A model generated the notes under the pieces. That model ran no database searches, was not told the origin of the DNA, and saw nothing but the letters and a program-made list of their open reading frames with translations. A DNA stretch of 63,208 nucleotides, the filler included, from Reclinomonas americana ATCC 50394 (taxonomy: Eukaryota), in the NCBI GenBank assembly GCA_048213135.1. It is 5 parts of 3 records of this genome, joined end to end, with 100 filler letters (N's around TTAATTAATTAA, not from the genome) between each part and the next. Parts side by side here need not be neighbours in the genome. Positions count along the whole stretch, not along the records: positions 1 to 12,559 come from PS015127.1; 4 more parts are not named here. The stretch is one strand, 5' to 3'. Of the stretch, positions 1-62,123 are shown in pieces (within the stretch, counting starts at the first letter, position 1; each line of letters starts with the position of its first letter). A program made the translations under genes and the position numbers.

Positions 1-3000
1 CGGGGCCGGTGCAAGCCTTGTCGCTTAGCGTTTCGGGCCTCGTGAACGGCGGGTCGATAGCCACCAACGGCACACTGCAAGTCACGGGACAGATTTCCGG
101 AGGCAGTATCACGAGCAGTGGCACGCTTTCGGTTGCCGGGGTGGTGACTGTTGGAAGCCTAACAACGACTGGATCGCTCATTGGCGCATCGATCAGCGCG
201 GCTGGCCTTCTGTCAGCCGGCAGTCTCACCACGACTGGTGACCTGCTGGCAGCCGGGAACTTGTCGGTCAACAATGGCACCGTCCGCGGTGCGCTCAGCA
301 GCAGCGGATTGATCACTAGCGGTGGGCTCTCTACGGCCGGCACGGTGATCGCCGCGGGCATGATGATGGGTGGCAACTTGAGCACCGCCGGCACCATTGG
401 TGCCGCCGGTCCCATTACCGTCGGTGGTGTGACTACGACAGGCGTCGTGCAGGCAACTGGTGTAATCAGCGGCGGCAGCTTGTCAACCACCGGGCGCCTG
501 GATGTCACGGGCATTCTGTCGGCCGGTAGTATAACGTCGGCTGGCATTGTTTCTGGTGCTTCGCTGAGTAGTGCCGGACTGGTTATCGGCGGTTCGCTCA
601 GCACGACTGGCACTGCAGTGGTCAGCGGTCTTGCGACGGCCGGCAGCATTGTGTCGCTGAGCACAATCGATGCCAGTGGACTGATCTCTGGTGGCAGCTT
701 CAGCTCGGGCGGCTCCGTGCGTGCCGCATCTGTTACTGCAAGCGGTCCTGTGGTGGCGAATTCGGTCACCGGCACCTTGTCGGTTCAGTCTTCCGGGGTG
801 ATCACTGCCGGCAGCTTCACCACTAGCGGCGCCGTGGACGTGGCAGGTCGTGTCACCGCTGGCAGCATGTCGTCCTCGGGTACCGTTACTGTTGCCGGTC
901 TTGTCAGTGCCGGAAGCCTGTCTACCACTGGCTCTCTGGTGGTTGTCGATGTAATTAGCACCGCCGGTGGGCTATCTACGACGTCCACTATCAGTGCTGC
1001 TGGTGTGATTACTGGCGGCAGCGTCACCACTGGCGGCTCCGTGTTGGCGTCCTCGATTAGTACTGCTGGCATTGTCAACAGCGGGTCATTCACGACGGCA
1101 GGCACTATTTCGGCCACCGGTCTCATGTCTGGCGGCAGTTTGTCGACCAATGGCAACCTCACAGTGGCCGCTACCATCTCTGGCAACCAGATGACGCTTT
1201 CGTCGACGGCCAGTGTAACTGGTCTTATCACTGGCGGCAGCGTGACCACAGGCGGTACTGTGAGTGCCGCCGGTGTAATCATTGGCGGCAGTTTCTCCAC
1301 CAGTGGCACGCTTGATGTGGTTGGTCTCATCACTGGTGGGAACATCACAACGGCTGGCACTGTCAACGCCAATGGCATTATTGTGGGCGGCAGCTTCTCG
1401 AGTGCCGGCACCGCGATCATTGGTGGTGTAGTTACCGTCGGCAGCCTTTCTACGGCTGGCACAGCCACTGTTGCTGGTCTGGTCACCGGTGGCAGCTTGA
1501 CAACTGCCGGCACAATTTCTGGTACTGGTCTGTTGACCGCGGGCAGTGTCACCACAGCGGGTTCAGTTGCCGCGCTGTCTGTCAGTGCGTCGGGTGTGAT
1601 TGCTGCTGGCAGCTTGACCACGCAGGGATCGGTTGTCGTTGGTGGAGTGATGCAGAGTGGCTCAGCGTTGGTGAACGGCGCTGTCAGCGCCGCCGGTTCC
1701 ATCACTGCCACTGGTGGTGTGATTAGCGGTGCAGTATCGATCAGCGGCCTCCTCACTGGCGGCAGCTTCACGACCACCGGTAGTCTGACGGCTGCCAATG
1801 TGATTGTCGGTGGCAGCTTCACCGCCAGTGGCAGTCTCTGGGCATCGACTGTGAGCACTGCCGGTCTCATGGCGGGCGGCAGTCTCTCAACAAGCGGCAN
1901 NNNNNNNNNNNNNNNNNNNNNNNNNNNNNNNNNNNNNNNNNNNNNNNNNNNNNNNNNNNNNNNNNNNNNNNNNNNNNNNNNNNNNNNNNNNNNNNNNNNN
2001 NNNNNNNNNNNNNNNNNNNNNNNNNNNNNNNNNNNNNNNNNNNNNNNNNNNNNNNNNNNNNNNNNNNNNNNNNNNNNNNNNNNNNNNNNNNNNNNNNNNN
2101 NNNNNNNNNNNNNNNNNNNNNNNNNNNNNNNNNNNNNNNNNNNNNNNNNNNNNNNNNNNNNNNNNNNNNNNNNNNNNNNNNNNNNNNNNNNNNNNNNNNN
2201 NNNNNNNNNNNNNNNNNNNNNNNNNNNNNNNNNNNNNNNNNNNNNNNNNNNNNNNNNNNNNNNNNNNNNNNNNNNNNNNNNNNNNNNNNNNNNNNNNNNN
2301 NNNNNNNNNNNNNNNNNNNNNNNNNNNNNNNNNNNNNNNNNNNNNNNNNNNNNNNNNNNNNNNNNNNNNNNNNNNNNNNNNNNNNNNNNNNNNNNNNNNN
2401 NNNNNNNNNNNNNNNNNNNNNNNNNNNNNNNNNNNNNNNNNNNNNNNNNNNNNNNNNNNNNNNNNNNNNNNNNNNNNNNNNNNNNNNNNNNNNNNNNNNN
2501 NNNNNNNNNNNNNNNNNNNNNNNNNNNNNNNNNNNNNNNNNNNNNNNNNNNNNNNNNNNNNNNNNNNNNNNNNNNNGATGTGTTTGCGAGTGGGCGAGTG
2601 GCGGCCGTGGGGTTGGTGCAAGGCGGCAGCTTGTCGACAGCTGGCCAAGTGCTGTCGGTGGGTGATATGATAAGTGGCGGCAATGTGTCTGCCAGTGGAG
2701 CCGTACGAGGCGGCAGTGTGAGCACGAGTGGTGGTGTGATTGGCGGAAGCATGTCGACGTCGGGCACCGTGAGTGCGCAGGGTGTGATGAGCGGCGGCAG
2801 TCTGACGACTATTGGCACGATTGTGGCGGGAGGACTGGTTAGTGGAGCCAGTCTGAGCACCACGGGTACGGTAATGGCTGCCGGCACTGTGTCCGGCAGC
2901 AGCTTCACGACCGACGGAGCGCTGACTGTGGGTACGATCATTCGCGGGACGTCTGTGACCGCAACCGGAAGCATTGTGGCGCTGAGTGCGTCCACCTCTG

Positions 3001-6000
3001 GCGCCATTGCTGGTGGCAGCTTGTTTACTGACGGCGCGCTCGATGCTGGCGGTGTGGCCACATTGCGAAGCTTGTCGGTGGGCACCACAGCCAGTATTAC
3101 TGGTCTGGTCACCGGCGGGTCATTCACTTCGGCCGGCCCCATGTTCGGCTCCAGTGTGAGCTCCGCTGGCATGGTGACTGCCGGCTCATTCACGACCTCG
3201 GGTCAGGTGCTGGCACTTGGTGACGTTGTCTCTAGTGGCACGGTGCGAGGCGGTTCTCTGTCGAGTTCATCTGCCGCCACTGTGGTCGGCTTGATCACCG
3301 TCGGCAATCTCACGACCGCTGGTTCGGTGCAAGCGGCACTCACTGTCAGTGGCGCAGCACTGAGCTCGTCGGGCACCGTTACTGCCAGTAGCCTGGTCTC
3401 CGGTGCCACACTCTCCACGAGCGGCCTGGTGATCTCTACGGGCATGGTTGCGGGCGGTAGTGTGACGGCGAGTGGTGGCGTGTACGGCAATCTGGTGAGC
3501 ACGGCTGGCGCGATCACCGGAGCTTCGTTCTCCTCCACTGGCAACGTTATCGTCACGGGCGTCATTGCGAGTAGCTCGCTGTCGTCTTCGTCTGCCTTGC
3601 TGGCCAATGGGCTCATCGCCGGCGGTAGCATCTCCAGCGGCGGCAGCATCTTCAGTTCGCTTTCTGTCTCGGCGGTTGGCATGATTGCCGGCAGCGATCT
3701 GTCCACGGCCGGCACGGTTATGGCCGCCGGTCTCGTCAGCGGAAACAGCTTGTCATCGTCTGGCTCGATCTCGGCTGCCGCATCTGTCAGCTCGACCACA
3801 CTGCAGACGTCGGCAGCGGCCACGATCGGTACCACACTCACCGCTGTGCAGGTGATTGCGACCGGCAGCGTTAGTGCTGCCGGCGGTGTGGTGTCGGGTG
3901 GCAGTATGTCGTCATTTGGTGCCATTCTCGGTGGCAATGTCAGCACGGCAGGAATCATTACGGGCACGAGCTTGACGAGTTCGGGATCGCTGACTGCTGG
4001 TGGGACAGTGTCTGGCGCGCAGCTTATCAGCTCATCTTCGGTCAGCGCCGCCGGCTTGTTGACTGCCGGCAGCATGACAACCGCCGGTCGCATTCTGGCC
4101 GGCGACACCGTGACCGCCGCCAACATTGTTTCGGGCGGCTCAATGAGCACTGCCGGCACGCTGAACGCCGGCAGCACAGTACTGAACGGAACGCTGCTGG
4201 TTAGCGGTCAAATTACTGGAAGTACTTCCTTGTCTGCCGCCGGCATTGTACAGGGCTCACAACTCACCACGGCTGGCCTCGTGGCCGGCTCCGGCCTGTC
4301 CACCAATGGCTCCGTGTTTGCTGGCGGTGATGTGAATGCGACACGTGTGCTGACGAGCGGGCCAATGGTTGCCGGCGGTACGTTGACTGCCGCCGGGCTG
4401 ACAACCAGCGGCAACGTGCAAGCGTCCAGCATTTCTGGTTCCTCGGTATTGGCGTCGGGTACCATCAGTAGCGCAGGCACTATGACGGCGTCTGCGCGGA
4501 TGACAGCCGGTGAGCTGTCGTCCTCTGGTAACATCTGGGCCCTCACAGGCACCATCGGTGGCAACAGCCTCACCGCCGTGGGCGCCATCACGGCTGCAAG
4601 TCTCAGTGTCTCCGGTAGTATCACCACTGGTTCGGCATTCTCGACTAGCGGTACCATTAGTGCTGGCGGTCTCGTGAGTGGAGGCAGCATCACTGCTGGC
4701 GGTATTATTGTCGGCAGCAGCTTTAGCACTGCGGGGTCGGCCACTATTACCGGCCCGCTGACTGCCGAGACGCTGACTGCCAATGTGTCGGTGTCGGCGT
4801 CTGGCCTCGTCACTGGTGCCACGCTGTCGACAAGTGGAGCGCTGTTTGCCGGTACCGCCGCCACTGTGGGATCGCTCAGCACAGCCGGTTCCGTTCAAGG
4901 CGCGATTCTCTCATCGGCCGGCGTTGTCACTGGCGGTAGCTTCAGCACTGCCGGCACTCTCGTGTCTGGCTCCAACATCAGCACCAGTGGCGCTCTGATC
5001 AGCGGTGTGAGTGTGAGCACCGCCGGACAACTTGTCGCCAACACGGTGTCCACTATCAACGGCTCCACGATTGGCGGTACTCTGTCGGCTGCTGCGCTTG
5101 TCACGGGGGGCTCTCTCACCGTGACGGGTGTGATCTCGGGAGGCAGTGTAACGACTGTCGGATCGCTACAGAGCAGCTCGGTGAGCACGTTTGGCCTGGT
5201 GAGTTCCGGCAGCATTGCGACTAGCGGCACAGCGACGGTGACGGGCCTGATGACTGCTGGCAGCTTCGAGACGGCTGGTACGATTGGTGCCGCCGGCGCG
5301 GCATCCGTGGGCAGCCTGGCTAGTGCTAACGCAGTGAGTGCTGCTGGTCTGGTCACGGGCGGTGGCGGATTCACGACGAGTGGCACCGTGGTCGCTGGCG
5401 GTCTGGTGACGGCGGGTAACCTGACGACAGGCGGCACAGTGCAGGCCGCTGGTGTGATTACGGGCGGCAGTGTGACAACTGTGGGGTCGCTGCAGAGCGG
5501 TTCGATGAGCACGTCGGGCCTGGTGAGCGGCGGCAGTTTTGCGACTGGCGGCACGGCGACCGTGACGGGCGCGGTGATGGCCGGCAGTTTCACGACGGCT
5601 GGCAAGATTGATGCCGCCGGCACGGCGACAGTTGGCGGTCTCGCCACTGCGGGAGTGGTTAGCTCTGTCGGCCTGATAGTCGGCGTTGGAGGCATCACCA
5701 CGAGCGGCACGGTCGCAGCTGGCGGTCTGGTGACGGCGGGCAACTTTACGACGAGCGGCACCTTACAGGTGGCCGGTATTATCACTGGTGGCAATGTGAC
5801 GACCGCGGGCGGCGTGCAAAGCCTGACTGTGAGCTCGTCAGGTGTGGTGAGTGGCGGCACTCTGTCGACGGCCGGTCTGCTGCAGGTGGAAGGTGCGGCG
5901 ATTCTGGGAAGTGTGTCGACGGCCGGAGCGATCAGCTCTGCTGGCCTGATCACCGGCGGCAACATGACGACTGCTGGTTTCGTGCTAGGATTTGCAGTGA

Positions 6001-7077
6001 GTTCATCGGGGCTGATCAGTGGCGGAACACTGAGCACCGCCGGGTCTATTTTGGCCGGTGGTGTTGTTTCCTCCACTGGCGTTTCGACGGGCTTTGTCAA
6101 TGCAAGTGGCCTCGTCTCGGGAGGTGGCCTGTCGACGTCGGGCTTGACGCAAAGTGCCAGCATCACGGCCACTGGTCTCATTGCCGCCAGCAGCTTCTCC
6201 ACCACCGGTACCATGATTAGTGGCGGCCTGCTGACGGCGCTGAGTGGCATCTCTAGCGCCGGCAATGTGCAGGTTGGAACCCTTAACAGCACCAGCAATA
6301 TCTCCACGGGCGGCTTCCTGTCAGTTGGCCTGAGCGCCAATGTAGCTGGCGCGCTTACGGTCGGCAATGTCAGCGCCAACAGTCTGGCAGTTAGTGGCTC
6401 TGCGACGGCGGGTTCGATCTCTTCTGCCGGCTTCTTGCTGCTTGGCGGCAACGCTTCTGTGGGCACGCTGAGCAGTGCGGGCGACATGACTGTGTCCGGT
6501 GTCATTGTGGGCGGCAGCCTGTCGACGGCTGGCTCACTGACGGCCTCGACGCTTACAGTCAATCAGCTGAATCTGACGACTTCAGCCGTGAGCACCAGCG
6601 GTCTTGTGACCAGTGGCAGCTTCACCACGGCCGGCTTTGTTCTGGCCGCCGGCCTCGTGTCTGGCGGCTCGTTGACGACGTCGGGTCTGGTCGTCGGCGG
6701 CAGTGTGAGTGCCTCTGGCCTGGTCAGCGCCGTGCGCTTGGCCGTTGGTACCGACGGCGCTTCCGTCAATGGCGGATTCACTGCGAATGGTGAGTTGATT
6801 GTGTTTGAGTGGAGGGAGAGGAGGAAGAGAGAGGGGAGAAGGAGGAGAAGGAGGGAAACTTGCATGGAGGCAGTGACTTGAGATTTTGAATGTTGACTCA
6901 TTCTCGTGTTCATGCAGCTGCGGCCACGTTCAACAATCTAATCAATGTGGAGAGTCTGCTTCGCTTGCGGTCGACCNNNNNNNNNNNNNNNNNNNNNNNN
7001 NNNNNNNNNNNNNNNNNNNNNNNNNNNNNNNNNNNNNNNNNNNNNNNNNNNNNNNNNNNNNNNNNNNNNNNNNNNNN

Positions 7078-7163
<86 letters not shown>

Positions 7164-7739
7164 CGCAGAGCGGAGCATCGCAGCCGTCCGATCGCCAACT
7201 CAAGCACAACGTGCAGCCCATTCAGGGCGCTCTCGACAAGGTTCTGCAGCTCGGCGGGTGGACATTTGAGTGGAACGATGTGCGTGACCGGGAGGAGAAG
7301 ACAGCGCAGAGTTGCAATCGCTGACCCCTGAATGCGTTTTTTATTGTGTTTTTTAGTTGGCCATCAAGGCAGGCATGAAGGCTGGTACTCGGTCACTCGG
7401 TTTCATCGCCCAGGAATTCGAGCAGCACTTCCCCGACCTGGTCGTTCATCAGCAGCGCCCAGATGGATCGGTGCGTGTTTCTGTCCCGCGCTTCGTCGGT
7501 CATTGCCCACACTTGCTCACGTCTTGTTGTTGTCACAGATGATCCGCCGTGTTTCGTATGGTCCATTCGTTGCGGTGCTGGTCGAGGCCATCAAGGAGCA
7601 GCAGCATGTGATTGAGCGGCAAGAGGACGAGCTGCTGCGACTGAAGGAGTCCATGTCCACACAGATGGCCGCAATGCAGCAGCAGCTGAATCAGTTGCAA
7701 GCGCAGCTGCAGCTCGTGTTGCAGCAGCGACTTCAATAG
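1..7739 (+). CDS. Giant G/S/T/A/V-rich repeat (beta-helix/tail-fibre-like) protein with C-terminal Peptidase S74 intramolecular chaperone/autocleavage domain and coiled coil; 5' end outside window
   Basis: Open frame to the GTGAGT donor at 6790, with an N gap at 1900-2576, made of GGSLSTAG/AAGLVT-type repeats. Exons 6918-(gap), 7169-7279, 7357-7470 and 7539-7739 splice to ...SQPSDRQLKHNVQPIQGALDKVLQLGGWTFEWND|LAIKAGMKAGTRSLGFIAQEFEQHFPDLV...|MIRRVSYGPFVAVLVEAIKEQQ..., matching the S74 motifs SDxRxK, GFIAQE and Y...LVEAIKEL. Confidence 0.9.
7078..7160. repeat. (TG)n microsatellite in intron
   Basis: Pure TG run next to an N gap, just before the acceptor at 7168. Confidence 0.95.
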
Positions 7740-7806
7740 TGAACGTCGATGTATGATGATGAGTAGGACACCTCAATCACAGTCGATCCGTCACAATCAA
7801 TCAGAC

Positions 7807-8818
7807 ATGAGTGGAAGACAAGCCAAGCCCGTGCATCCCCGCAGCCGCAACGCGCGGTACATCTCCTCCCAAGTGCACCACCAGCAGAAGCTCAAGAAGC
7901 AGAGACACAAGCGTGATGTGAGCACGTCTGTCAGAGGTGAGTGTGTGTGTGTGTGTGAATCTGCACATGTCCGTGCATGCACGACCTCAGCCCACAACCT
8001 CGGCCTCCCTCCCGTGTGTGCGACGTACAGCCGACAAGTTCCTCTGGCTTCAGCAAGTACTTGCCGCCGAGTTCCCCAACTCGATGACCTACGGCGACGC
8101 CCGCGCAATGCTGCCAAGGTCTGTGTCTCTTTCTCCCTCTTCCCTCTCTCTCTCTCTCTTTCTCTCTGATGTGGAAGAGTGGAGTCCAGATACATTGCCC
8201 GCCACGACGATGAGATTGCGGAGCTGGAGGAGAAGCGACGAGGCCGTCTGCCGCTCACTGCACGCGAGTCACTGTTGCGGGAGCAGAAGCGTGCAGAGGA
8301 GGCAGCGTGCATGCGACGAGACTTTGGTGCGCAGTGTGTGTCTCTTCGAGTATGTCGATCTCCGCCGCTGAAGTGTGTGTGCGATTGCAGAGTTCCCCGA
8401 TGTGTTCTCCAAGGCTCGCCTGCGCGACTTTCTGTTGCGTCTCTGTCGTTGTCGTTGTTGTTGGTCCCCTGATCTCTGGTGGCTGACGTGTGGGTGGAGA
8501 GCAGGCTGTGGGACGGGAAGCCGACCAAGGTCGAATCGTTCAAGGTGATCAAAATGGGCTTCGCGGCCGCCGACGACGGCACCGACGACGACGATGATGA
8601 TATCGCCGACGGGGAAGCTGCTGGTGAAAAGACGCCGATTGCGTCGGTGTGTGTCTCTGTGTCTGTGTATGCGTGCGCGATGGCGTCTCGTCTGTCTGTG
8701 TGCTGACTGTGCTGACCATGTGCTGCAGTCGGCGACATTGTCTCTGAGTGGCACCGATCCGAACAAGCCGAGTCCGTTTGGGAGCAGGAAGATGGAGGTG
8801 ACAGCCGCTGCTGAGTGA
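7807..8818 (+). CDS. TMA16: Translation machinery-associated protein 16 (multi-exon)
   Basis: Spliced product MSGRQAKPVHPRSRNAR...DKFLWLQQ...RYIARHDDEIAELEEK...EFPDVFSKARLRDFLLWDGK resembles the TMA16 motifs HPxSRKA, KLLWFQ, YLxRFDEEL, EIPD and FREWDG. Confidence 0.75.
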
Positions 8819-8868
8819 AGACGCACGGCAACCACAGTACGCGATACGACGATGAGGGTGTGTGGCCT

Positions 8869-11800
8869 TCATTTTGATCCGCGGCGTTGTGCTGCCGCCA
8901 AGGCCTGCGCCATGAGCTCGTTCAACACGCGTTCCACGTCCGCCACATCGTCCACGGCCGTCTGGTCTTTCTTCGGCAGCAGGGTGAAGGTCTCCGGGCA
9001 CTTGGGTCGGACCTGGTACTTGCGCAGATGCGCCGGTTGCAGGAGTCGCGTGTCGGGAGCCTGCGTTGAGGATTGTGAGGGGGAAAGTCACTACCAGCAG
9101 CAGCAGGATCGCTGCAGAACGCACAGAGTTCGGCTCAGAGAATGCCGGATCGCGGTTGCCGTCCAGATAACGCACGAACACGCTGGCCCACTCGAGGAAG
9201 CGGATACGCCGCTCGGCTGTCGCGTTCTGCAACGCAGTGACCAATCCGACTTGTCGCACCTCGGCGAAGAAATCCTGCGCAGCGGGGATCGCACTGAGCA
9301 ACGATCCATCACTGGGAATCGGTTCTCGCAAACACACACCTGCGTCAATGGCGGCTTGAAAAGAGGCGCCTGGAACGTGCGAGTGGTCATGTAGCCGTGC
9401 GGCGAGAACAGCGGCAGCATGGCCCAGCCGGCCGATTCGAACTTGTCCAGCTGTGCGACGTTGTAAGAGACACAACTGCAGCAGCGCAGGCGACTCGAGA
9501 AAAGGGCTCACTCACCGTCGGCGCAAAAGCAAACACCTCGATCACCACAATGCCCTTGGGGTCAAACGGAATCTCCTCAAAGCGCTGTGCATCCGCCCCC
9601 AGCAGTGAGGGTTCTTTCTCTCTCTCTCGCGTTTGTTGTCAAGTACCACGGCACACGCTTACCCACGGCGAGTCGAGGAATCCGGGATGACGTTGCGGAG
9701 CACTCCAATCGGGCGATGTCGTGAATGCCTGAATGGCAGTGGGCGAGCCGTACGGATGCGCGGCCGTGTCTAGGGTCATGAGGGCTTTGAAGTGCAAGCT
9801 CTTTGGCATATTCTGCAAGCCATCCACGGCGACCTGCCACGTCGACGTGCGCGGTCAGCACGACGATCACACAAGAGCAAGCGCACCGGCGCCACGCAAC
9901 GCTGAAACCGGCTGTTGGATTGTACCGAGCGATAAAGGTGGGATCGAGCAGCGTGGTCGGCTGCCCTGTTCCCAGCGATTCACGGATCCAACCGTCCACC
10001 GCCCGCGTGTCGTCCTGCATCATTGAGAGAAATAGATGTCACCATGACGCTCCTGACACTCTCGAGTCCAGGCACCACCACACCTTGTCAATGCCGCTGT
10101 TCATGATTCCGACCAGTGCACGCAACGGTTTGTCGACGCGCAGCAGCCGCTTCTTGTACAAGAGGCGCTCGTGCGGCTGCGGCTCGCACAGTGTCGAATC
10201 GTAGGCTCCAGAACGATAGTTGGGAGACGGCACCGCCAAGCCTAACCGGGGGCGGCAGGCGGGGGTGAGAGCGAAGCAGGATGAGCGACGACTGCGACAG
10301 CCACGTACCCCTCGATACCCATTCCTCGCGTGGCACCAGAGTGCGCGACAGTACGCGTCCAGGCTCGTTGTTGATGAAGCCGCGTGGAGCTACGAGAACT
10401 CGCAGCAGTATCGAGCACGTCGGCACTCTGCAGGACGACACAGAATGAGGAGACAGAGCACTTTGTATATCAGCAGTAGATACGGCGACACACCGCTCTT
10501 TGCCGTGCGCCGAGGCAGCGGAGATGGGTCCCTGGTTCGGCGACCCCATGTACACCGGCAGCTGGTACAGGCCAGCGCGAAGAAGACCAGTGTCCGTAAA
10601 CAACTCAAATACGCTGAATCCGACAACCTGCGATGCAAGCACGGTGAGTCACGTGCACATGCACTCTCGGCGACAGCGCCCGACTCACCCGCAGTTGTCT
10701 TCCAAACAATTCAATTGTGTCAATCTGTACATATAATACACCGTCGCGAGGTACAGTGCCCCGCAGACCGAGATAGCCCTGCATATGTAGAGAAAGAGAA
10801 AGAGATGTGAGTATGGTATGCAGCATCGACTTGGAGGGAGAGCCAGCAAACGAAAACGAACATCATAGGCAGGCGAATACGAGTCGCCGTCGACACTGGC
10901 ACACGCATCCGTGTAGCCCACTGGCGTCCAGTCTGGCTTGTACATGCGGATTTGCACCTGCACGCCAACACCACGCAACGTAAGGCTCTCCCATCGCCGC
11001 ATTGCGACACAATCACAGACGGACCTTGGAGATTGTGCAACTGTCGGGCAGATACCGAGCACCGTCCACATAAATGTCGACGCCGTCGTCGTCTTGGACG
11101 CGCACACCTAATCGTGGAGCATCAGCCACAAAATTCTACCCACACACACACACACAACCTCCTTCTCTCTCGCGCACCAATCTGCTGCAAATCGACTTTC
11201 CGGAATGCTTTGCGTGGCACACCCTCCACGTCCTCGGCCAGATCGTCTCCCTCGGGCAGTGCATCGCACACTCGCGGTGGATGATCTTCCCGGAATATCT
11301 GCGCCCAGACATCATTGTCATTATTCACAGGTCACGATACATCTGCGTGACACGCCCGGCCGCCATACCACTAGCTCCACTTGCGGGTCGGTCGCCGACG
11401 GTTCACTGCCTGCCATGCGCTGTTGCTGAATCGTGACCATGCTCAGTAGCACGTTGCGCGAGCTGCACACACATCACATGACAGGGTGTGGTGAGCAGAT
11501 GGCCACCGCAGCATGGGTGCGGGGCATACATTCAACCAACCTGCCGCCGCCGCCACCGACCATGTCGGGCCGACGTCCGGGCACCAGCGGCAGGTGAACG
11601 GGGCCCGCATTGAGCACTGCATTCGAACACAGTCACCTACAGTTGATCACTGCGCCGACGAGACAAACATGTCGACGTACCCTGGGCTCCTGTTGCTGGA
11701 TCAGCAACCAGAAGAGACATGGCGGCCCAGCCCACTGGCACCACCTCCTCGTCGACAGAGGAGATGCTGGAGGCTGACTTGGGTCGTCCCTCGCTGTCAC

Positions 11801-12350
11801 GCTGGGAGGGAAGCGATCACACACTGGCAGCACGCAATGCGGCGTGTTGTCGACACGCACTCACCGGCGCCTCGAGAACTTCGACCAGCAGTTCAGCCGT
11901 GGACAACAGCCGGGCATCGTGGAAAATGGTGCGCTCTTCAAAACTGTACAAACCGCGCGACCACGACATCTGCACCAGAGACCGTGAGAGATGAGTGCAC
12001 ACCTTTCGTATCTTGAGGGACACTTACATCGCGTACACGAGTGCGCCACGTGTATGGCAGGCCCTGGTCATTCTTCAGCACACGCCGACTGGACACGAGG
12101 CTAAACTTTACAAAGACACGCTCGGAGCCAAACAGCTCCTTGCAGGCGACACACAAGACGCCGACTCTGCACACGAGCACACATTAGCATGAGAGATATG
12201 GGCGTGTGCGCGCGTGTCTCTATCTTTGCATAGCTGCATGCCGCAACGATGATACAAGTGTCGCCGCCGGTGTGGCAAGTCGAGCGGCCGCCGACGAAGG
12301 CACCAGCATTCGTGACGACTCAGCGGTTTGAGGAACTGCGAAAAGGCGCA
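8869..12350 (-). CDS. Multi-exon conserved hypothetical protein with C2-like beta domains
   Basis: Exon peptides GVDIYVDGARYLPDSCTISK, VGFSVFELFTDTGLLRAGLYQLPVYMG, YDSTLCEPQPHERLLYKKRLLR and FIARYNPTAGFSVA|VDGLQNMPK...PDWSAPQRHPGFLD. Last exon ends ...AAAQRRGSK* at 8869. Start uncertain. Confidence 0.6.
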
Positions 12351-12559
12351 TGTCAGGGTCGATGATGACTCTGCGGCAACAATGCTGTCGTCGACGCCAC
12401 TCCACCTGTCAGTGGTGTTACTTCTCGCGAAATAAGCACCGAAGGTCGATGAGCTGAGCCAGGAGGCTCAGCAGGTGGCGGTGGAGACCGCGGGAGTTGC
12501 TGTTGCGAGTACGCCATTTTAAGTCAGCACATACTAACCAGTAGCGGTACGTACACACA

Positions 12560-12659
12560 NNNNNNNNNNNNNNNNNNNNNNNNNNNNNNNNNNNNNNNNN
12601 NNNTTAATTAATTAANNNNNNNNNNNNNNNNNNNNNNNNNNNNNNNNNNNNNNNNNNNN
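12560..12659. other. Artificial scaffold spacer
   Basis: 44 N + TTAATTAATTAA (stops in all six frames) + 44 N. Confidence 0.95.
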
Positions 12660-32695: not shown

Positions 32696-32795
32696 NNNNN
32701 NNNNNNNNNNNNNNNNNNNNNNNNNNNNNNNNNNNNNNNTTAATTAATTAANNNNNNNNNNNNNNNNNNNNNNNNNNNNNNNNNNNNNNNNNNNN
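32696..32795. other. Artificial scaffold spacer
   Basis: N44-TTAATTAATTAA-N44. Confidence 0.95.
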
Positions 32796-33286: not shown

Positions 33287-34362
<1,076 letters not shown>

Positions 34363-35258
34363 TCTCGCGCATCCCCCCCTGGTCTCGCTCTTTGTCTCTT
34401 GCTTGCAGATTCGTGGCCGGCAGCTAGTTCTCTCCTCTTTTCTCTCTCTCTCAGTCCCCACGTATTGCTGGTAACTGCACACATTGTTGTGGTGGTGGTA
34501 GTGGAATGCGTGAGTGAGTTAAGGGCGGTAGCGGCNNNNNNNNNNNNNNNNNNNNNNNNNNNNNNNNNNNNNNNNNNNNNNNNNNNNNNNNNNNNNNNNN
34601 NNNNNNNNNNNNNNNNNNNNNNNNNNNNNNNNNNNNNNNNNNNNNNNNNNNNNNNNNNNNNNNNNNNNNNNNNNNNNNNNNNNNNNNNNNNNNNNNNNNN
34701 NNNNNNNNNNNNNNNNNNNNNNNNNNNNNNNNNNNNNNNNNNNNNNNNNNNNNNNNNNNNNNNNNNNNNNNNNNNNNNNNNNNNNNNNNNNNNNNNNNNN
34801 NNNNNNNNNNNNNNNNNNNNNNNNNNNNNNNNNNNNNNNNNNNNNNNNNNNNNNNNNNNNNNNNNNNNNNNNNNNNNNNNNNNNNNNNNNNNNNNNNNNN
34901 NNNNNNNNNNNNNNNNNNNNNNNNNNNNNNNNNNNNNNNNNNNNNNNNNNNNNNNNNNNNNNNNNNNNNNNNNNNNNNNNNNNNNNNNNNNNNNNNNNNN
35001 NNNNNNNNNNNNNNNNNNNNNNNNNNNNNNNNNNNNNNNNNNNNNNNNNNNNNNNNNNNNNNNNNNNNNNNNNNNNNNNNNNNNNNNNNNNNNNNNNNNN
35101 NNNNNNNNNNNNNNNNNNNNNNNNNNNNNNNNNNNNNNNNNNNNNNNNNNNNNNNNNNNNNNNNNNNNNNNNNNNNNNNNNNNNNNNNNNNNNNNNNNNN
35201 NNNNNNNNNNNNNNNNNNNNNNNNNNNNNNNNNNNNNNNNNNNNNNNNNNNNNNNNNN

Positions 35259-37114
35259 CTTTGCCGGTGCCAATGGCCCACACCGGCTCGTACGCAATCA
35301 CCACGTCAGCCCAGTTGCTGATGCCAGCTGCGCGGCGGTGAGAACTCAGACAGCACCACCAAGGAGACACAGAGTGTGCACACCAGCAAAAGCGGCCAGT
35401 TGGCGCTCGACGACCTCGATCGTCTGCCCGGCCTCGCGCTCCGACAGCAGCTCACCGACGCACGCCGCCACCTTCAAGCCCGCTGCTTGTGCCGCGCGGA
35501 TCTTATCGGTCATCAGCTGCAATAATGGGGAAAGGGAAACGGGGGAAAGGGGGGAGGATGAGGGAAAGGGGAGGGGAAAGGGGAAGGGAGGGGAGAAGAG
35601 GATTAGTGAGGCAAAGGATGAGAACTACAAGACGTGCAGAGAAGACGGGAAGCGAGACGAGTATGGAACAGGGGGAGGCGGGAAGAAGGTGAGGAGAGAG
35701 AAGAACAGGAGGAAAAGGGGAAGAGTGAGGGAAATGGAGGCGAAGGATGAGAATGGGGAGAGTTGGAGAAGGAGAAAGAAGAGTTGGAGAGAAGAAAAAG
35801 GGAGGCGAGACGAGTATGAGAACACAAGGAGGTGGGGAGAAGGAGAAGGGAGGGTGAGGCGAGAGGAAAGGGAAAGAGTGGGAGCAGAAAGGAGAGGGAA
35901 GAGGCGAACGGCAAAGAAAGAGGCAGGAAAACAGGTAGAACGGGATGTGACATGAACGAGAAGGGAGGGGAGAAGGGCGATGGAATTGTCAGAGAATGAG
36001 TGAGCGAGGCGATGAAAGAGAAGAGGACATGGAGAAGGGAGAAAGGACGAAGGATCACGCACCGCATCGGTCTCGCCAAACACATGACGACGCTCCGAGT
36101 GACCGAGAATGACCCAGGGGATGCCGGCATCGCGAATCATGGCGACCGTGACCTCGCCGGTAAAGGCGCCGTCCTTGATGTAGGCGTCTTGCAGGGCGAC
36201 GGCAATGCCAGGCCGCACAGTCGCCTGCACAGAGAGCGCGTACAGTGCAGGAGGTGCCACCACGACCTCTGTGTGAGGACACAGGGAGGTGAGGAGGAGG
36301 AGGAGGGGGGAGGGGGAGGAGGAGGAGGAGGAGGAGGAGGAGGAGGAGGAGGAGGAGGAGGAGGAGGAGGAGGAGAAGAANNNNNNNNNNNNNNNNNNNN
36401 NNNNNNNNNNNNNNNNNNNNNNNNNNNNNNNNNNNNNNNNNNNNNNNNNNNNNNNNNNNNNNNNNNNNNNNNNNNNNNNNNNNNNNNNNNNNNNNNNNNN
36501 NNNNNNNNNNNNNNNNNNNNNNNNNNNNNNNNNNNNNNNNNNNNNNNNNNNNNNNNNNNNNNNNNNNNNNNNNNNNNNNNNNNNNNNNNNNNNNNNNNNN
36601 NNNNNNNNNNNNNNNNNNNNNNNNNNNNNNNNNNNNNNNNNNNNNNNNNNNNNNNNNNNNNNNNNNNNNNNNNNNNNNNNNNNNNNNNNNNNNNNNNNNN
36701 NNNNNNNNNNNNNNNNNNNNNNNNNNNNNNNNNNNNNNNNNNNNNNNNNNNNNNNNNNNNNNNNNNNNNNNNNNNNNNNNNNNNNNNNNNNNNNNNNNNN
36801 NNNNNNNNNNNNNNNNNAGGAGGAGGAGAAGAAGAAGAAGAAGAAGAAGAAGAAGAAGACAAGGAGAAGTAGAAGAAGAGGAAGAATGTGACAGAGGAGG
36901 CAGAGAGGGAGGAGCAGGAGCTCACCAACATTGGCGGGAAGATCAGCCGCGTTGAGGCTGTCGACAAGTGCAGCAGTGGATGCCTTGTTGCCGTTCTGTT
37001 TTGCACACAAGCTGTGAGTGGCAGCACATGGTGGCGTGGCGTTGTGTGTCATGTGCACGAAACGGCTTTCCAGTTGCCGCCGACCCAGGGAGTGCGAGAT
37101 GCGGATGCGGCCAT
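35259..37114 (-). CDS. TPI1: Triosephosphate isomerase (3' end in gap)
   Basis: [11 protein letters not shown]..., [31 protein letters not shown]. Confidence 0.98.
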
Positions 37115-37653
37115 TGTCGATGAAAGGAAAAGAATGTCCTGCCGTGTACGGCTTTCTTCGTAACTTCGGATGGTATGTCGGGCAGCTGCTGGTGGATCGG
37201 TAGAAGAAGCGCCCATGTACATCGACCGCTGTAACCACTGCCGGTTTGCTGCAAACGTCGACGTCGACGTCGATTGCGTCGACGTCGCCAAGGGAACGAA
37301 TTCGTGTGAGAAAGAGTCAGACGTGTGTGTATAACGGTGCACGCAGAGGAGCTGTTGTTCTTCATTGACTGGCATCAAACACGCAGCGAGACTTCGCGAG
37401 GACTCAAACGAAAATTCACGCATCTTTCATTGTTTGCAACGCGTAGCGCGTTCGTGCTTTGTGTGTGTGTCACAGTGCGCGAGAGAGTGCATTGTGCAGG
37501 TTTGTGTGCGCGCGCGTGTGCGTGTGTGTGCATGTTGTGTAAGTTGCTGACATGGAATCTATATTGTGCGTTGGCAGCTCTTCCCCCCACACTCTCTCTT
37601 CTCTCTCGTGCGTGTGTGTGTGTGCATCAGTGTGTCTCTGCTGAGCTGATATC

Positions 37654-41970
<4,317 letters not shown>

Positions 41971-42970
41971 TCTCGATTCCACTTTCTCTCTGTCTCTTTT
42001 TTATCCTTTCGTCTGCATTCTCCTTTCGTTTTTTTGGTTCCCTTTCATTACGTAGTTGCAACAACCAACAAAAGAAAAACGCAATTGCTTGCAGTAGAGT
42101 TGCTTTCCTTGCGTCGCAGAGGGAGAGAGGGGAAGCCGTCCGTTCATTGTTGAACTTGCTTTTGTGATGCGATCTCTCTGCCTGGCTTTGGCTTTTTCTC
42201 GTCTTGGATGAGCCACGTATGATCGCAGAAAACGGGCCTTTTGATCCCGTGACCCTTGACCGACGATGACGCCGGTGCTGCTTTGCTTGCTTCACGGATC
42301 CGGACCCGGCTTTGCTTTGTTTGCCTGGCTATATGGCCTTTCCCCGAATACGATGTGCCGTGTACGATCGCAGAAAACGCTGTGCGTCTATAGCTATGCA
42401 AGTGCGTCAAATCCACTGGTCAACCACGCTTATGCGGTGAAGATCGCAGTTCTCGACTTGTTCGGAGCTCCGAGAGCGATCACACCTCAACACTGGTGTT
42501 GTTGTTGTGTTGATTTTTGGATACGGTTGAACTTGGTCATCAAGACAGCTGTGCTTGCAATTGTTTGTCGGCACATGAATTGTTGTGGCAACTGTTGGCC
42601 TCCCTGCGAAGGCAGTGCAGAATCAGAATTTCTAGCATCGCTGCACGTTCGAATTCAGTTCATTGAATCGCGAACATTGTGTGCTGCATGCCACGGATCG
42701 CCCGGTCGCACACCCGAGGAGCACGAACGTTTCTAGAACTGCATGTGGGTTGCTGCGTGGTTTCTGTTGCCGGAACGTCGGCGCCGGCACCAGCAATATT
42801 CGATTTTTCGATTTCTCTCACTGTTTCCGTGATGCCTCAATTTCTGGTTCTCACGCACAATGGTCATCGTATGCATGCACCTGTGTTACTGTTTGGATTA
42901 CAGAAGCTATTTGTCGCCGTTGAAAGGATATCTGGATATCGAAAACGCAGTGGACCGACGTCTACAGTGG

Positions 42971-42978
42971 TGACGTCA
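42971..42978. promoter_or_regulatory. TGACGTCA motif upstream of the ankyrin gene
   Basis: 35 nt before the ATG at 43013. Confidence 0.45.
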
Positions 42979-43012
42979 TTCACTCTTTCACTCTGCGCAC
43001 GAGAAGTGAGCC

Positions 43013-45323
43013 ATGCGGTCACCCTCACCTCACCGCAGCACGCACACGCTGCTGCCTTTGCTCCTCCTCCTCCTCCTCGTCGTCGCCATCATCGCGACAT
43101 GCGCACACGCCTCTGTGTACTCGCCCGGTCGCACCCCCGACCAGCAAGGCATCGAGCAGCCGCCTCCAGTCAGTGCCGCCGACCAAGCCATCGACGAGCT
43201 GCACAATGCCGTCTCTCTCGGCTCCATTGCACAGGTACGCAAGCGAAACAAAACAAAAGAAAGAGACGCACACACACAAAAAAAGAGTGATGACGTAACG
43301 GACACGTGTCATGCATGCATAACAACAGGTCAAGGAGCTCGTCAAGGAAAAAGGCGTGTATTTCAACGCAGTGCATCCGGCCTCCAAGTTGACTGCGTTT
43401 GCGATCGCCTGTCGCAGTGGGCATGAGAAGATGGCGCGGTATATTCTGGCGCTGGCGCAAAAGGCGGTGGATTCGTACAAGAAGGGGGAGCGCGAGGAGG
43501 CGCCGCAGGAGACGGTCAAGGAGATTTTGAATTTCCGCGATGAGGAGCAGAAGATGTCGGTGTTGTTGATGACGGTGTTGCTCGGCAAGGAGAAGATGGT
43601 CAAGGTGAGAAGGAGGGGGAAGGAGGGGAGAAGGAGGGAAGGGAGAAGGGAAAGGGGATGGGGAAGGGGCTGGCGAAGGAGGGGAGGCGAGTGCAAGAAG
43701 GGAAGAGGAACAGGGAAAGAGGGAAAGGAGAAGGAAAGGTATGACGGGGAAGGGAGACAGGAGGGGAGAAGGAAGGAAAGGAGAAGGGAAAGGGGATGGG
43801 GAAGGAAGAAGGGAGAATTGGGCAGGGGCTGGGAACGAAGGCGAGTGATATAGAAGGGAGAGTAGAAGGGGAGGCAAAGAGAGGGTGAGAGAAAGGGGCT
43901 GTGAGAGGAGAAGGGGAAAAAGAGAGCAGCGACTGGCAAGAAGGGGAGAGGAACAGGGAAAGTGGGAAAGGAGAAGGGACAAGGTAGATGGAAGGGAAGG
44001 GAAGGTGAGGTGAAGAAAGGAGGGAAAGGGGATGGGGAGAGGAGAAGGGGAGGAAAGAGAGCAGCGGCTGGGGAAGGAGGGAAGGCGAGTGAAAGAAGAG
44101 GAGAAGAAAAGGGAAGAGGGCAGGGATGGCGAATGATATATAGGGGGACAAGGGGGAGAGTAGAAGGGAAGGCGAAGAGAGGGTGAGAGAAAAGGGATGT
44201 GAGAGGAGAAGGGGAAAAAAGAGAGCAGCGACTGGAGGCGAGTGAAAATAGGGGAGAAGAAAAGGGAAAGAGAAAGGAGACGGAAAGGTATGACTGTGAA
44301 GGGAGACAGAAAGGAAGGGAAGAGACATAGTCGATGGAGGGAAGACGAGGAGAGGGAGGGGGAAGAGGGCAGAGAAGGGATTAGGAGAGAGGGAGAAGAC
44401 GGGGAGAAGAAAAGGAAAGAGGGCAGGAGAGCTGGAAGTTAATGGGGAAGGTATGAATAGCGGAGCAGAGGGGTTGAGAGGCTGGGGGAGGAAGGAATGG
44501 GGAAGAAGAGGATGGGGAAGGGGAGAAGAAAAAGGAAGAGAGGTCTCTTGTCTGCGAGTGAGCTAGCCAAGTGCCGTGACCAAACTCTCCGCTTCTTTCA
44601 CCAGCATCTGCGCACTCTGTGTCAGCATACTTGCGTGTGAGAGTGCATGTTCTTCCGCAAAGGGACAGCGAGGATGGAGTGAAGCGGGCAGGATTACTGG
44701 GAAGTGTGGTAGTAGAGGGCTGGGTATGGAAGAAAGGCACCGATCACACGTGGAGTGTGGACGAAAAATGAGATGCTCACTCTCCCCTCCCCTCCCTCTT
44801 GCCTGGCAGCTCCTGTTGGAGAAAGGCGCGGACCCGACGATTCCCGACATCAAGGGATACACGCTGTGGCATGCGGCGTGCTTTGCCGGTCACGTCGAGG
44901 TCGCTCGAGTGTTGCATCATTTCGGACTCAATCATGTTGCGTTGCCTGATTGTTCGCTGCTTTCACGGCGATCTTCTCACTGCGACTGCAGGAGGAAGTG
45001 CATGCGGAGGACGGCTACGCACCAGTGTTCCGCGCGACGTGGAAGGACACGCGTCAGCATGCGGCGGTGAGTCTGCAGAGAGAGAGAATGATTGCTGTCG
45101 TTTGTGACGAACTGGACACTTTCAAAGGCACTATCTCGATCGTTTTTCATTCTTGCTCTCAATTCTCTCTGCGCCTCGGCGACAGGGAAAGTGTTTGTTT
45201 CGTTCTCTTTGTGTTTGCATCTCAGTGTGGCCTCTGGTGCTGGTTCACATGTCACTTTTTTCTCTCTTCCAATCTTCTCTCCCCGTCTATCACTCAGTCT
45301 TGTCCTTCCCAGTCTCTGGCCAC

Positions 45324-54039: not shown

Positions 54040-54139
54040 NNNNNNNNNNNNNNNNNNNNNNNNNNNNNNNNNNNNNNNNNNNNTTAATTAATTAANNNNN
54101 NNNNNNNNNNNNNNNNNNNNNNNNNNNNNNNNNNNNNNN
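54040..54139. other. Artificial scaffold spacer
   Basis: N44-TTAATTAATTAA-N44. Confidence 0.95.
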
Positions 54140-62023: not shown

Positions 62024-62123
62024 NNNNNNNNNNNNNNNNNNNNNNNNNNNNNNNNNNNNNNNNNNNNTTAATTAATTAANNNNNNNNNNNNNNNNNNNNN
62101 NNNNNNNNNNNNNNNNNNNNNNN
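62024..62123. other. Artificial scaffold spacer
   Basis: N44-TTAATTAATTAA-N44. Confidence 0.95.

Follow-up and report, generated by a model that had tools for sequence, protein, structure and literature searches.

A Reclinomonas americana gene with phage tail-fibre relatives, apparently spliced and possibly encoding a self-processing beta-solenoid rod

The window analysed here is a 63,208-nucleotide (nt) stretch of DNA from the protist Reclinomonas americana ATCC 50394 (GCA_048213135.1), and its first 7,739 nt hold the 3' portion of a giant gene, which we call the fibre gene. The part seen is an open frame with 2036 sequenced residues of a 17-residue repeat, followed by a Peptidase_S74 (ICA) domain that carries the expected Ser/Lys motif and has two intron-like interruptions. 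Its base composition and codon usage are host-like, its nearest relatives belong to phages, and its stop codon lies next to a gene for the cellular protein Tma16. Taken together, these observations make it rather probable, in our view, that the gene is resident in the nuclear genome, is spliced and descends from a phage fibre, its product being a beta-solenoid rod that processes itself. The phage-type fibre could have been acquired either directly or via a eukaryotic virus.

The features of the fibre gene are, in window coordinates:

3..1899 (+): repeat exon, part 1, 632 codons sequenced (3-1898), open frame with a 17-residue period
1900..2576: gap of 677 N within the repeat exon, same frame on either side
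2577..6789 (+): repeat exon, part 2, 1404 codons (2577-6788) plus 1 base, ending at a consensus donor
6918..6976 (+): candidate small exon, optional, after the acceptor TTCATGCAG, in phase with donor 6789 and open into the following gap
6977..7077: gap of 101 N between the repeat exon and the S74 exons
7078..7160: (TG)41 microsatellite, read as intronic
7169..7279 (+): S74 exon A, with a possible alternative start at 7176, containing the Ser and Lys codons; donor GTGCGT at 7280
7280..7356 (+): putative intron, 77 nt, GTGCGT ... TTTTTTAG, with an AG end after a T-rich tract
7357..7470 (+): S74 exon B, with the GFIAQE motif, Pfam PF13884
7471..7538 (+): putative intron, 68 nt, GTGCGT ... CACAG
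7539..7739 (+): last exon, with the end of the ICA domain (VEAIKEQQ helix) and a Q-rich helix of about 45 residues; stop TAG at 7737-7739

A long, degenerate repeat exon

The frame 3..6881 of the + strand is open, with about 2262 codons up to the donor at 6789/6790, of which 2036 are sequenced (632 + 1404, on the two sides of the 677-N run); the preliminary description of this DNA, which counted about 2000 sequenced residues and about 2260 with the gap, was thus correct. Between positions 1 and 6789 the coding frame has no stop codon, and the other five frames have from 5 to 155. The exon terminates at the donor ATG/GTGAGT, with the intron starting at 6790, and stops are reached soon afterwards in that frame. 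Its product contains 20% Gly, 18-19% Ser, 14-15% Thr, 12-13% Ala, 11% Val, 8.5% Leu and 5-6% Ile, with 0.2-0.5% Pro, no Cys, and less than 2.5% of Asp, Glu, Lys and Arg summed. This composition confirms the earlier account of a G/S/T/A/V/L/I repeat nearly devoid of Cys, Pro and charge, and the example peptide quoted there is found in the product.

The repeat has a period of 17 residues, with sub-periods of 11 and 6, and glycine autocorrelation reaches 0.53 at lag 17 in the first part. From 35 clean units we derived the consensus G-G-S-[LF]-[ST]-T-[SA]-G-T-V-x-A-A-G-[LV]-[IV]-T. At the DNA level, Tandem Repeats Finder returned one duplication of 324 bp (two copies, 75% identity), a few rows of 18-20 bp and nothing else. 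The DNA-level repeats are old and diverged, and the exon is therefore not an assembly stutter or artefact. For the internal 108-codon duplication at 5127-5774 we obtained a synonymous divergence (dS) of 0.73 and a nonsynonymous divergence (dN) of 0.18, a dN/dS of 0.25 that comes from a single pair. The first repeat part also has a weak Pfam match to the FapA beta-solenoid family (E 1.2e-5, below the cut-off).

The reading frame is kept across the 677-N run even though this number is not divisible by 3, and the gap length may be an estimate. Likewise, on the two sides of the 101-N run, S74 exon A (from 7169) is in the frame of the candidate exon that starts at 6918. Each agreement could be due to chance (1 in 3 each) or to replacement of the sequence by exactly as many N.

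An S74 domain distributed over three exons

The three S74 exons occupy three different frames. Exon 7169-7279 matches positions 1-32 of the Peptidase_S74 profile (34.5 bits, E 2.5e-8) and exon 7357-7470 matches positions 37-57 (21.6 bits, E 2.7e-4), where the criterion is the Pfam gathering score of 22 bits and the two exon halves were scored separately. Since successive exons cover profile positions 1-32 and then 37-57, removing the spacer between them restores a co-linear S74 domain. The motif SDRQLK in the first of these exons has its Ser codon (TCC) at 7187-7189 and its Lys codon (AAG) at 7202-7204, five residues apart, and aligns with the SD..LK of phage S74 domains in 8/8 cases. When the exons are joined, residues 5-101 of the resulting 141-residue C-terminus align with the S74 C-termini of 8 metagenome relatives (87 relatives were examined), and the same C-terminus matches a profile built from those 8 S74 relatives only with an E-value of 6.3e-14. 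Beside the two junctions there are insertions of 8 and 4 residues with respect to the phage domains. The Q-rich tail helix gave weak coiled-coil rows only in Pfam, and nothing meaningful came up when the 37-aa and 66-aa exons were searched against PDB sequences.

The preliminary description had placed the catalytic Ser at 7187 and the Lys at 7202, followed by GFIAQE, VEAIKEQQ and a Q-rich tail, and all of these are present at those positions or in that order. The identification as Peptidase_S74/ICA, for which a profile comparison had been proposed, is borne out by the Pfam match above the cut-off, the Ser/Lys motif and the alignment with the relatives. That the gene is spliced also agrees with the sequence, in which the S74 domain appears readable only after the removal of two short GT..AG introns.

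On the upstream side, donor 6789 could be joined in phase either to the candidate exon at 6918 or straight to 7176. The latter junction would yield ...GGFTAN-ASQP-SD..., near the ...TAQNVNSL-SD... of the phage relatives.

The dispersal of the S74 part over three frames, the score of exon B just below the Pfam cut-off (21.6 vs 22 bits), the 8- and 4-residue insertions at the two junctions and the failure to find orthologues among 1.84 billion representatives are what would be expected of a non-functional relic, namely an old transfer that is unexpressed or no longer self-processing, with frameshifting decay in place of S74 introns. We consider such a relic unlikely, given that 2036 sequenced codons run without a stop and that the internal duplication has a dN/dS of 0.25. 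Furthermore, the spacers have GT..AG ends, a common GTGCGT donor and host-like lengths, and their removal restores a co-linear S74 domain with Ser and Lys intact.

The nearest relatives are phage tail fibres

A word-index search of 5.8 billion proteins gave 87 matches of similar length and one longer, of 3695 aa. An exhaustive HMMER search with the last 1200 repeat residues against 1.84 billion representatives gave 229 matches at E <= 1e-3, 42 at E <= 1e-10 and 4 at E <= 1e-30, values that are inflated for low-complexity repeats; the best match, P0089, has 34% identity. The nearest relatives are 31-36% identical to the window protein over hundreds of residues, the best of them 34-36%. Their periodicity is the same, the top glycine lag being 17 in 64/88 and 11 in 17/88, and 122 units from eight relatives give the consensus G-G-N-[LIV]-x-T-G-G-T-V-S-A-T-G-[TN]-[VI]-T, in a register identical to that of the window protein.

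Other modules of these relatives match tail fibres of cultured phages, together with the Phage_T7_tail family and the FapA solenoid family. The IMG/VR viral contigs include all three of the relatives P0010, P0004 and P0089, with P0089 and P0004 being ranks 1 and 3 of the exhaustive search. At six loci, the neighbours of the fibre genes were compared with PHROGs (51/65 open reading frames, ORFs, at loci L026, L001, L017 and L021, and 34/58 at L111 and L190), excluding antisense ORFs within fibre genes, ORFs of at least 1400-1500 aa and the near-duplicate locus L191. At 5/6 loci there are genes for a tail sheath and a head-tail adaptor, at L026, L111 and L190 one for a major head protein, and at L111 one for a portal; the sixth locus, L001, with two ORFs, has phrog_8578 and phrog_9417 in common with L190. 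Because structural genes lie beside them, the nearest relatives can be identified as tail fibres of one lineage of uncultured myoviruses. The position of these relatives within structural modules of myoviruses supports the viral origin suggested in the preliminary description.

Loci L026, L017, L021, L111 and L190 have a conserved block formed by phrog_11196 (tail sheath), phrog_11591 (virion protein), phrog_11903 and phrog_211 (head-tail adaptor), and some of the fibre-bearing phage contigs are 180-344 kb long. This points to large aquatic myoviruses that form a widespread lineage and have several giant fibre genes in each genome.

Searching metagenome contigs with the last exon recovered 192 generic S74 tails with 27-68% identity, none of them close. 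At 75/80 of the metagenome loci matching this exon the S74 domain lies in one uninterrupted ORF, whereas the window version is interrupted twice. Comparison of the window protein with viral contigs and metagenome contigs gave pattern matches and no confirmed relative at the sensitivity of the tool, and tblastn against cultured phages with the low-complexity filter on gave no match.

A cellular neighbourhood and a host-like signature

The window contains four identical artificial joins (44 N + TTAATTAATTAA + 44 N) at 12560-12659, 32696-32795, 54040-54139 and 62024-62123. The TTAATTAATTAA join is a six-frame stop linker, so that at least five contigs have been put together in the window, in an order and with neighbours that may be arbitrary. 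For this reason the neighbourhood of the fibre gene is limited to 1-12559, and gene order across the joins cannot be trusted. Within these limits the sequence from 7078 to 12559 is uninterrupted (no N), and the first gene that it holds after the fibre gene is the following:

7807-8560 (+): spliced gene for Tma16 (translation machinery-associated protein 16), ATG at 7807

The ATG of this gene is 67 nt 3' of the fibre stop (7737-7739), on the same N-free sequence as the S74 exons. Its exon 1 corresponds to positions 2-33 of the Pfam profile (E 0.013) and a later exon to positions 68-106 (E 3.4e-7). A spacing of 67 nt is very tight for eukaryotic genes on the same strand and suggests a compact genome or overlapping untranslated regions. 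Introns in the genes for Tma16 and a P-type ATPase measure 66-92 nt and have GT..AG ends, like the putative ones of the fibre gene.

The repeat exon resembles the rest of the window in codon usage, with a GC content at third codon positions of 0.66 vs 0.72 in 1144 codons of other window ORF pieces and a correlation of relative synonymous codon usage of r = 0.84 over 39 codons, although this "host" set consists of hand-picked ORF pieces, some of them from other contigs joined via the linkers. Its overall GC content of 0.58-0.63 compares with 0.52-0.61 in most of the window and 0.42-0.46 in the contigs of the phage relatives. Downstream, the Pfam families found are cellular only (Tma16, CS, Methyltransf_16, SYS1, LRR, E1-E2 ATPase, TIM, SLC12, Ank and Arf), and no viral hallmark family, such as capsid, packaging ATPase, integrase or polymerase, was detected in 300/311 stop-to-stop ORFs of at least 90 aa beyond 7.7 kb, that is, in all except the last 11, at 60.3-63.2 kb.

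These data bear on whether phage or bacterial DNA was scaffolded onto a eukaryotic contig, as an assembly chimera or contaminant. The repeat exon does lie on pieces bounded by the N runs 1900-2576 and 6977-7077, and the window itself was stitched from several contigs by N44-TTAATTAATTAA-N44 linkers. We nevertheless find a chimera most improbable, as the intron-bearing S74 exons are on the same uninterrupted sequence as Tma16, and the repeat exon has a GC content of 0.58-0.63 with host-like codons, vs 0.42-0.46 in the phage relatives, and terminates at a consensus splice donor. In addition, identity to any stored protein is at most 36%, and the two halves of the gene, correctly ordered and oriented, match the same phage protein family.

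A more serious alternative, which we still hold to be rather unlikely, is that a eukaryotic virus has integrated here (a Polinton-like virus, PLV, a virophage or a giant-virus insertion), with its body upstream, and that the fibre gene belongs to it and codes for a virion fibre. PLVs integrated in protist genomes are reported commonly to encode modular fibres that reach 3.9 k aa and have Peptidase_S74 at their end (PMC12220804); for a Heterosigma virus genome bin, a preprint describes a protein of 1529 aa in which an FhaB-like beta-helix region is combined with S74 at the C-terminus (bioRxiv 10.64898/2026.02.06.704369); and genomic islands of giant viruses are enriched in "chaperone of endosialidase" (PMC13620141). 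Against these precedents stand the 300/311 downstream ORFs with ordinary eukaryotic families only and no viral hallmarks, and the fibre stop 67 nt before Tma16, which leaves no room for a terminal inverted repeat. The fibre gene is also host-like in GC and codon usage and carries what appear to be spliceosomal-type introns; for cryptophyte elements, the PLV study reports a GC deviation of 14-28%, with genes called by a prokaryotic gene finder (PMC12220804). Finally, the nearest relatives are in phage contigs, and no relative of the window protein was found in the viral contig collection at the sensitivity of the tool.

Other features of the window fall outside this argument. Two long frames lie opposite the repeat exon, and one further spliced gene was mapped beyond the joins:

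785-3193 (-): antisense open frame, 802 codons, P/A/V/T/L-rich, opposite the repeat exon
4895-6562 (-): antisense open frame, 555 codons, P/A/V/T/L-rich, opposite the repeat exon
35349-36380 (-): spliced triosephosphate isomerase gene

No Pfam family was found in the antisense frames 785-3193 and 4895-6562, and they were rejected as genes, given at least 5 stops per frame and no family; we read them as mirror images of the sense codon periodicity. The region 34000-44000, which includes the triosephosphate isomerase gene, has a strong positive GC skew (0.25-0.32), and near this gene there are long microsatellites of the GA/GGA/GAGA type and several N runs. Many gaps of the window are flanked by microsatellites of the TG, TC or GTAC type (27304, 40953, 48189 and 49359).

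Predicted fold of the rod

AlphaFold 2 without an alignment models the segment encoded by 993-1898 as a regular beta-solenoid, with a predicted local distance difference test (pLDDT) score of 70.9 (about 90 in the regular stretch) and a predicted template modelling (pTM) score of 0.72. Each turn of the model comprises 17 residues, with one strand of 3 and one of 9 residues. Foldseek against the PDB gave nothing at E <= 0.001 for this model, and exhaustive structural alignment retrieved single-chain right-handed beta-helix adhesins and phage tail proteins: EtpA (Z 21.4, rmsd 2.7, 287 residues), Vag8 (Z 20.7), the phage Andhra upper tail protein (Z 20.3), pertactin (Z 19.6) and many tailspikes (Z 12-16). 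The ESM Atlas gave a recognition of 860 and a best score of 0.90, which is uninformative.

The repeats most likely form a narrow beta-solenoid of about 120-133 predicted turns. With a rise of 4.8 Å per turn, the part of the rod seen here would be roughly 57-64 nm long, excluding anything upstream. The preliminary description had proposed a triple beta-helix, which finds no support in the models, the sole confident one being a single-chain solenoid with 17 residues per turn. The models weakly favour three side-by-side solenoids held by an ICA trimer over an intertwined triple beta-helix; a trimer prediction with three copies of 993-1898 scored 0.00 against a mark of 0.32, with controls absent, and was counted neither way.

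Points that weigh against a resident phage-derived gene

Several observations speak against our interpretation. To begin with, the window opens within the gene, so that its N-terminus and its whole upstream side, where a viral body could be placed, are out of view. Next, the repeat exon and the S74 exons are linked across the 101-N gap at 6977-7077 by scaffolding only, and their junction is ambiguous, with two candidate in-frame solutions. The removal of the 77- and 68-nt introns is itself deduced from sequence alone. Among 1.84 billion representatives, in which the window's own product is not listed, no orthologue or paralogue with more than 36% identity was found, and an S74-like domain is present in just 18/223 stored relatives (a nineteenth, P0168, was dropped, its match being limited to the repeat-like start of the profile). 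Regarding the fold, AlphaFold 2 tends to over-predict solenoids for regular repeats, and its model for 5589-6788, the last 400 repeat residues, is poor (pLDDT 50.8, pTM 0.38). To these points must be added the inflation of the E-values and the make-up of the codon set mentioned above.

Possible mechanism and significance

If the fibre gene is a resident gene, as we favour, its product may mature as endosialidases and MYRF do (PMC3742443, PMC8326128). The ICA domains of three chains would associate and nucleate the folding of the upstream beta-structure. Once folding is complete, the Lys encoded at 7202 would activate the Ser encoded at 7187, and the chain would be cut just before this Ser. Such a cut would release a chaperone-plus-helix fragment of about 130 residues and leave a stable trimeric rod ending in ...SQP. 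Ser and Thr make up one third of the residues, and one may speculate that the protein, if secreted, is heavily O-glycosylated.

We put forward more tentatively, as a possibility well short of an expectation, that the protist has domesticated a myovirus-type fibre as a spliced, host-regulated gene, whose self-trimerising, self-cleaving solenoid rod of at least 60 nm would act outside or on the cell, as a hair, coat fibre, adhesin or ejectile filament. For the extrusome, surface hair, adhesin or prey-capture filament of the preliminary description, no support was found. If domestication is true, this would be a second independent eukaryotic co-option of a phage ICA domain besides MYRF, and one in which the fibre-building job was retained.

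Phages use S74-capped fibres as a rule, and recent reports extend them to protist viruses. Among the cellular proteins of eukaryotes, MYRF offers the only well-studied use of the domain, and there the chaperone is all that survives. In the present case both elements of the fibre, the repeat rod and the chaperone, are apparently encoded in a nuclear genome, next to a housekeeping gene and with the introns and codon usage of the host. If the gene is expressed, a phage structural protein would clearly have become a structural protein of a eukaryote, and the gene would naturally supply a self-assembling rod that is very long and free of cysteine. If the gene is part of an integrated virus instead, a fibre repeat of phage lineage would occur in a eukaryotic virus, and a viral gene would have gained introns.

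Comparison with known systems

The closest likeness is to the myovirus tail fibres (P0089, P0001, P0004, P0010 and P0003; loci L111, L190, L026, L017 and L021), which have the 17-residue repeat in common with the window protein. In both, the repeat has Gly at positions 1, 2, 8 and 14, hydrophobic residues at positions 4, 10 and 16, and Thr at positions 6, 9 and 17, and some of the myovirus fibres end in an S74 domain that can be aligned with the putatively spliced C-terminus of the window protein. The two differ at position 3, which is Ser in the window repeat and Asn in the phage fibres, and at position 15, which is hydrophobic in the window repeat. The myovirus fibres interleave repeats with globular modules and N-terminal attachment regions, whereas the window protein is repeat-only over 2036 residues. 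Moreover, the phage fibres are uninterrupted ORFs in phage structural modules with a GC content of 0.42-0.46, while the window gene is apparently intron-split, is GC-rich and adjoins a cellular gene.

With the endosialidase-type domains (PF13884) the window protein shares the S-x4-K motif, the C-terminal position after a beta-structured fibre and a terminal helix. Unlike these domains, its S74 part is interrupted by two putative introns and continues into a Q-rich helix of about 45 residues; Pfam detected no sialidase or other enzymatic head in the part of the protein seen.

One study gives the catalytic Ser and Lys as five residues apart both in endosialidases and in MYRF (S578/K583) (PMC3742443). 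MYRF/MrfA resembles the window gene in being a eukaryotic nuclear gene with a phage-type ICA domain and a Ser/Lys pair five residues apart (PMC3742443, PMC8326128). For the Ndt80-type DNA-binding domain of MYRF there is no Pfam match in the 2036 residues upstream of the ICA domain, and no MYRF-like transmembrane segment was seen by eye after it, in the polar, Q-rich last exon of 66 residues. The window ICA domain caps a giant repeat rod, as in phages and unlike MYRF. The preliminary description, which had cited MYRF as the characterised eukaryotic example with a different architecture, was right about the architecture and overstated MYRF as the example, since, according to the reports cited above, PLVs and algal giant viruses also encode S74-ended fibres.

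These fibres of PLVs and algal giant viruses are, like the window protein, very large and S74-ended, and the FhaB-like beta-helix fold described in the preprint matches our predicted model. They are reported with laminin-G, collagen, adenovirus-fibre and other modules, whereas the window protein consists of repeats. Unlike them, the window gene has no adjacent viral genes in the part seen, a host-like GC content and intron-like spacers of the spliceosomal type. As S74-capped giant fibres are already known in or near protist genomes, the novelty of the gene is lowered, and it is from these systems that the integrated-virus alternative comes. Full-text searches of the literature turned up no report of a spliced nuclear phage-fibre gene, which is no proof of absence. 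What sets the gene apart from all these systems is the combination, in one gene, of apparent introns, host-like composition, a housekeeping neighbour 67 nt away and nearest relatives in phages.

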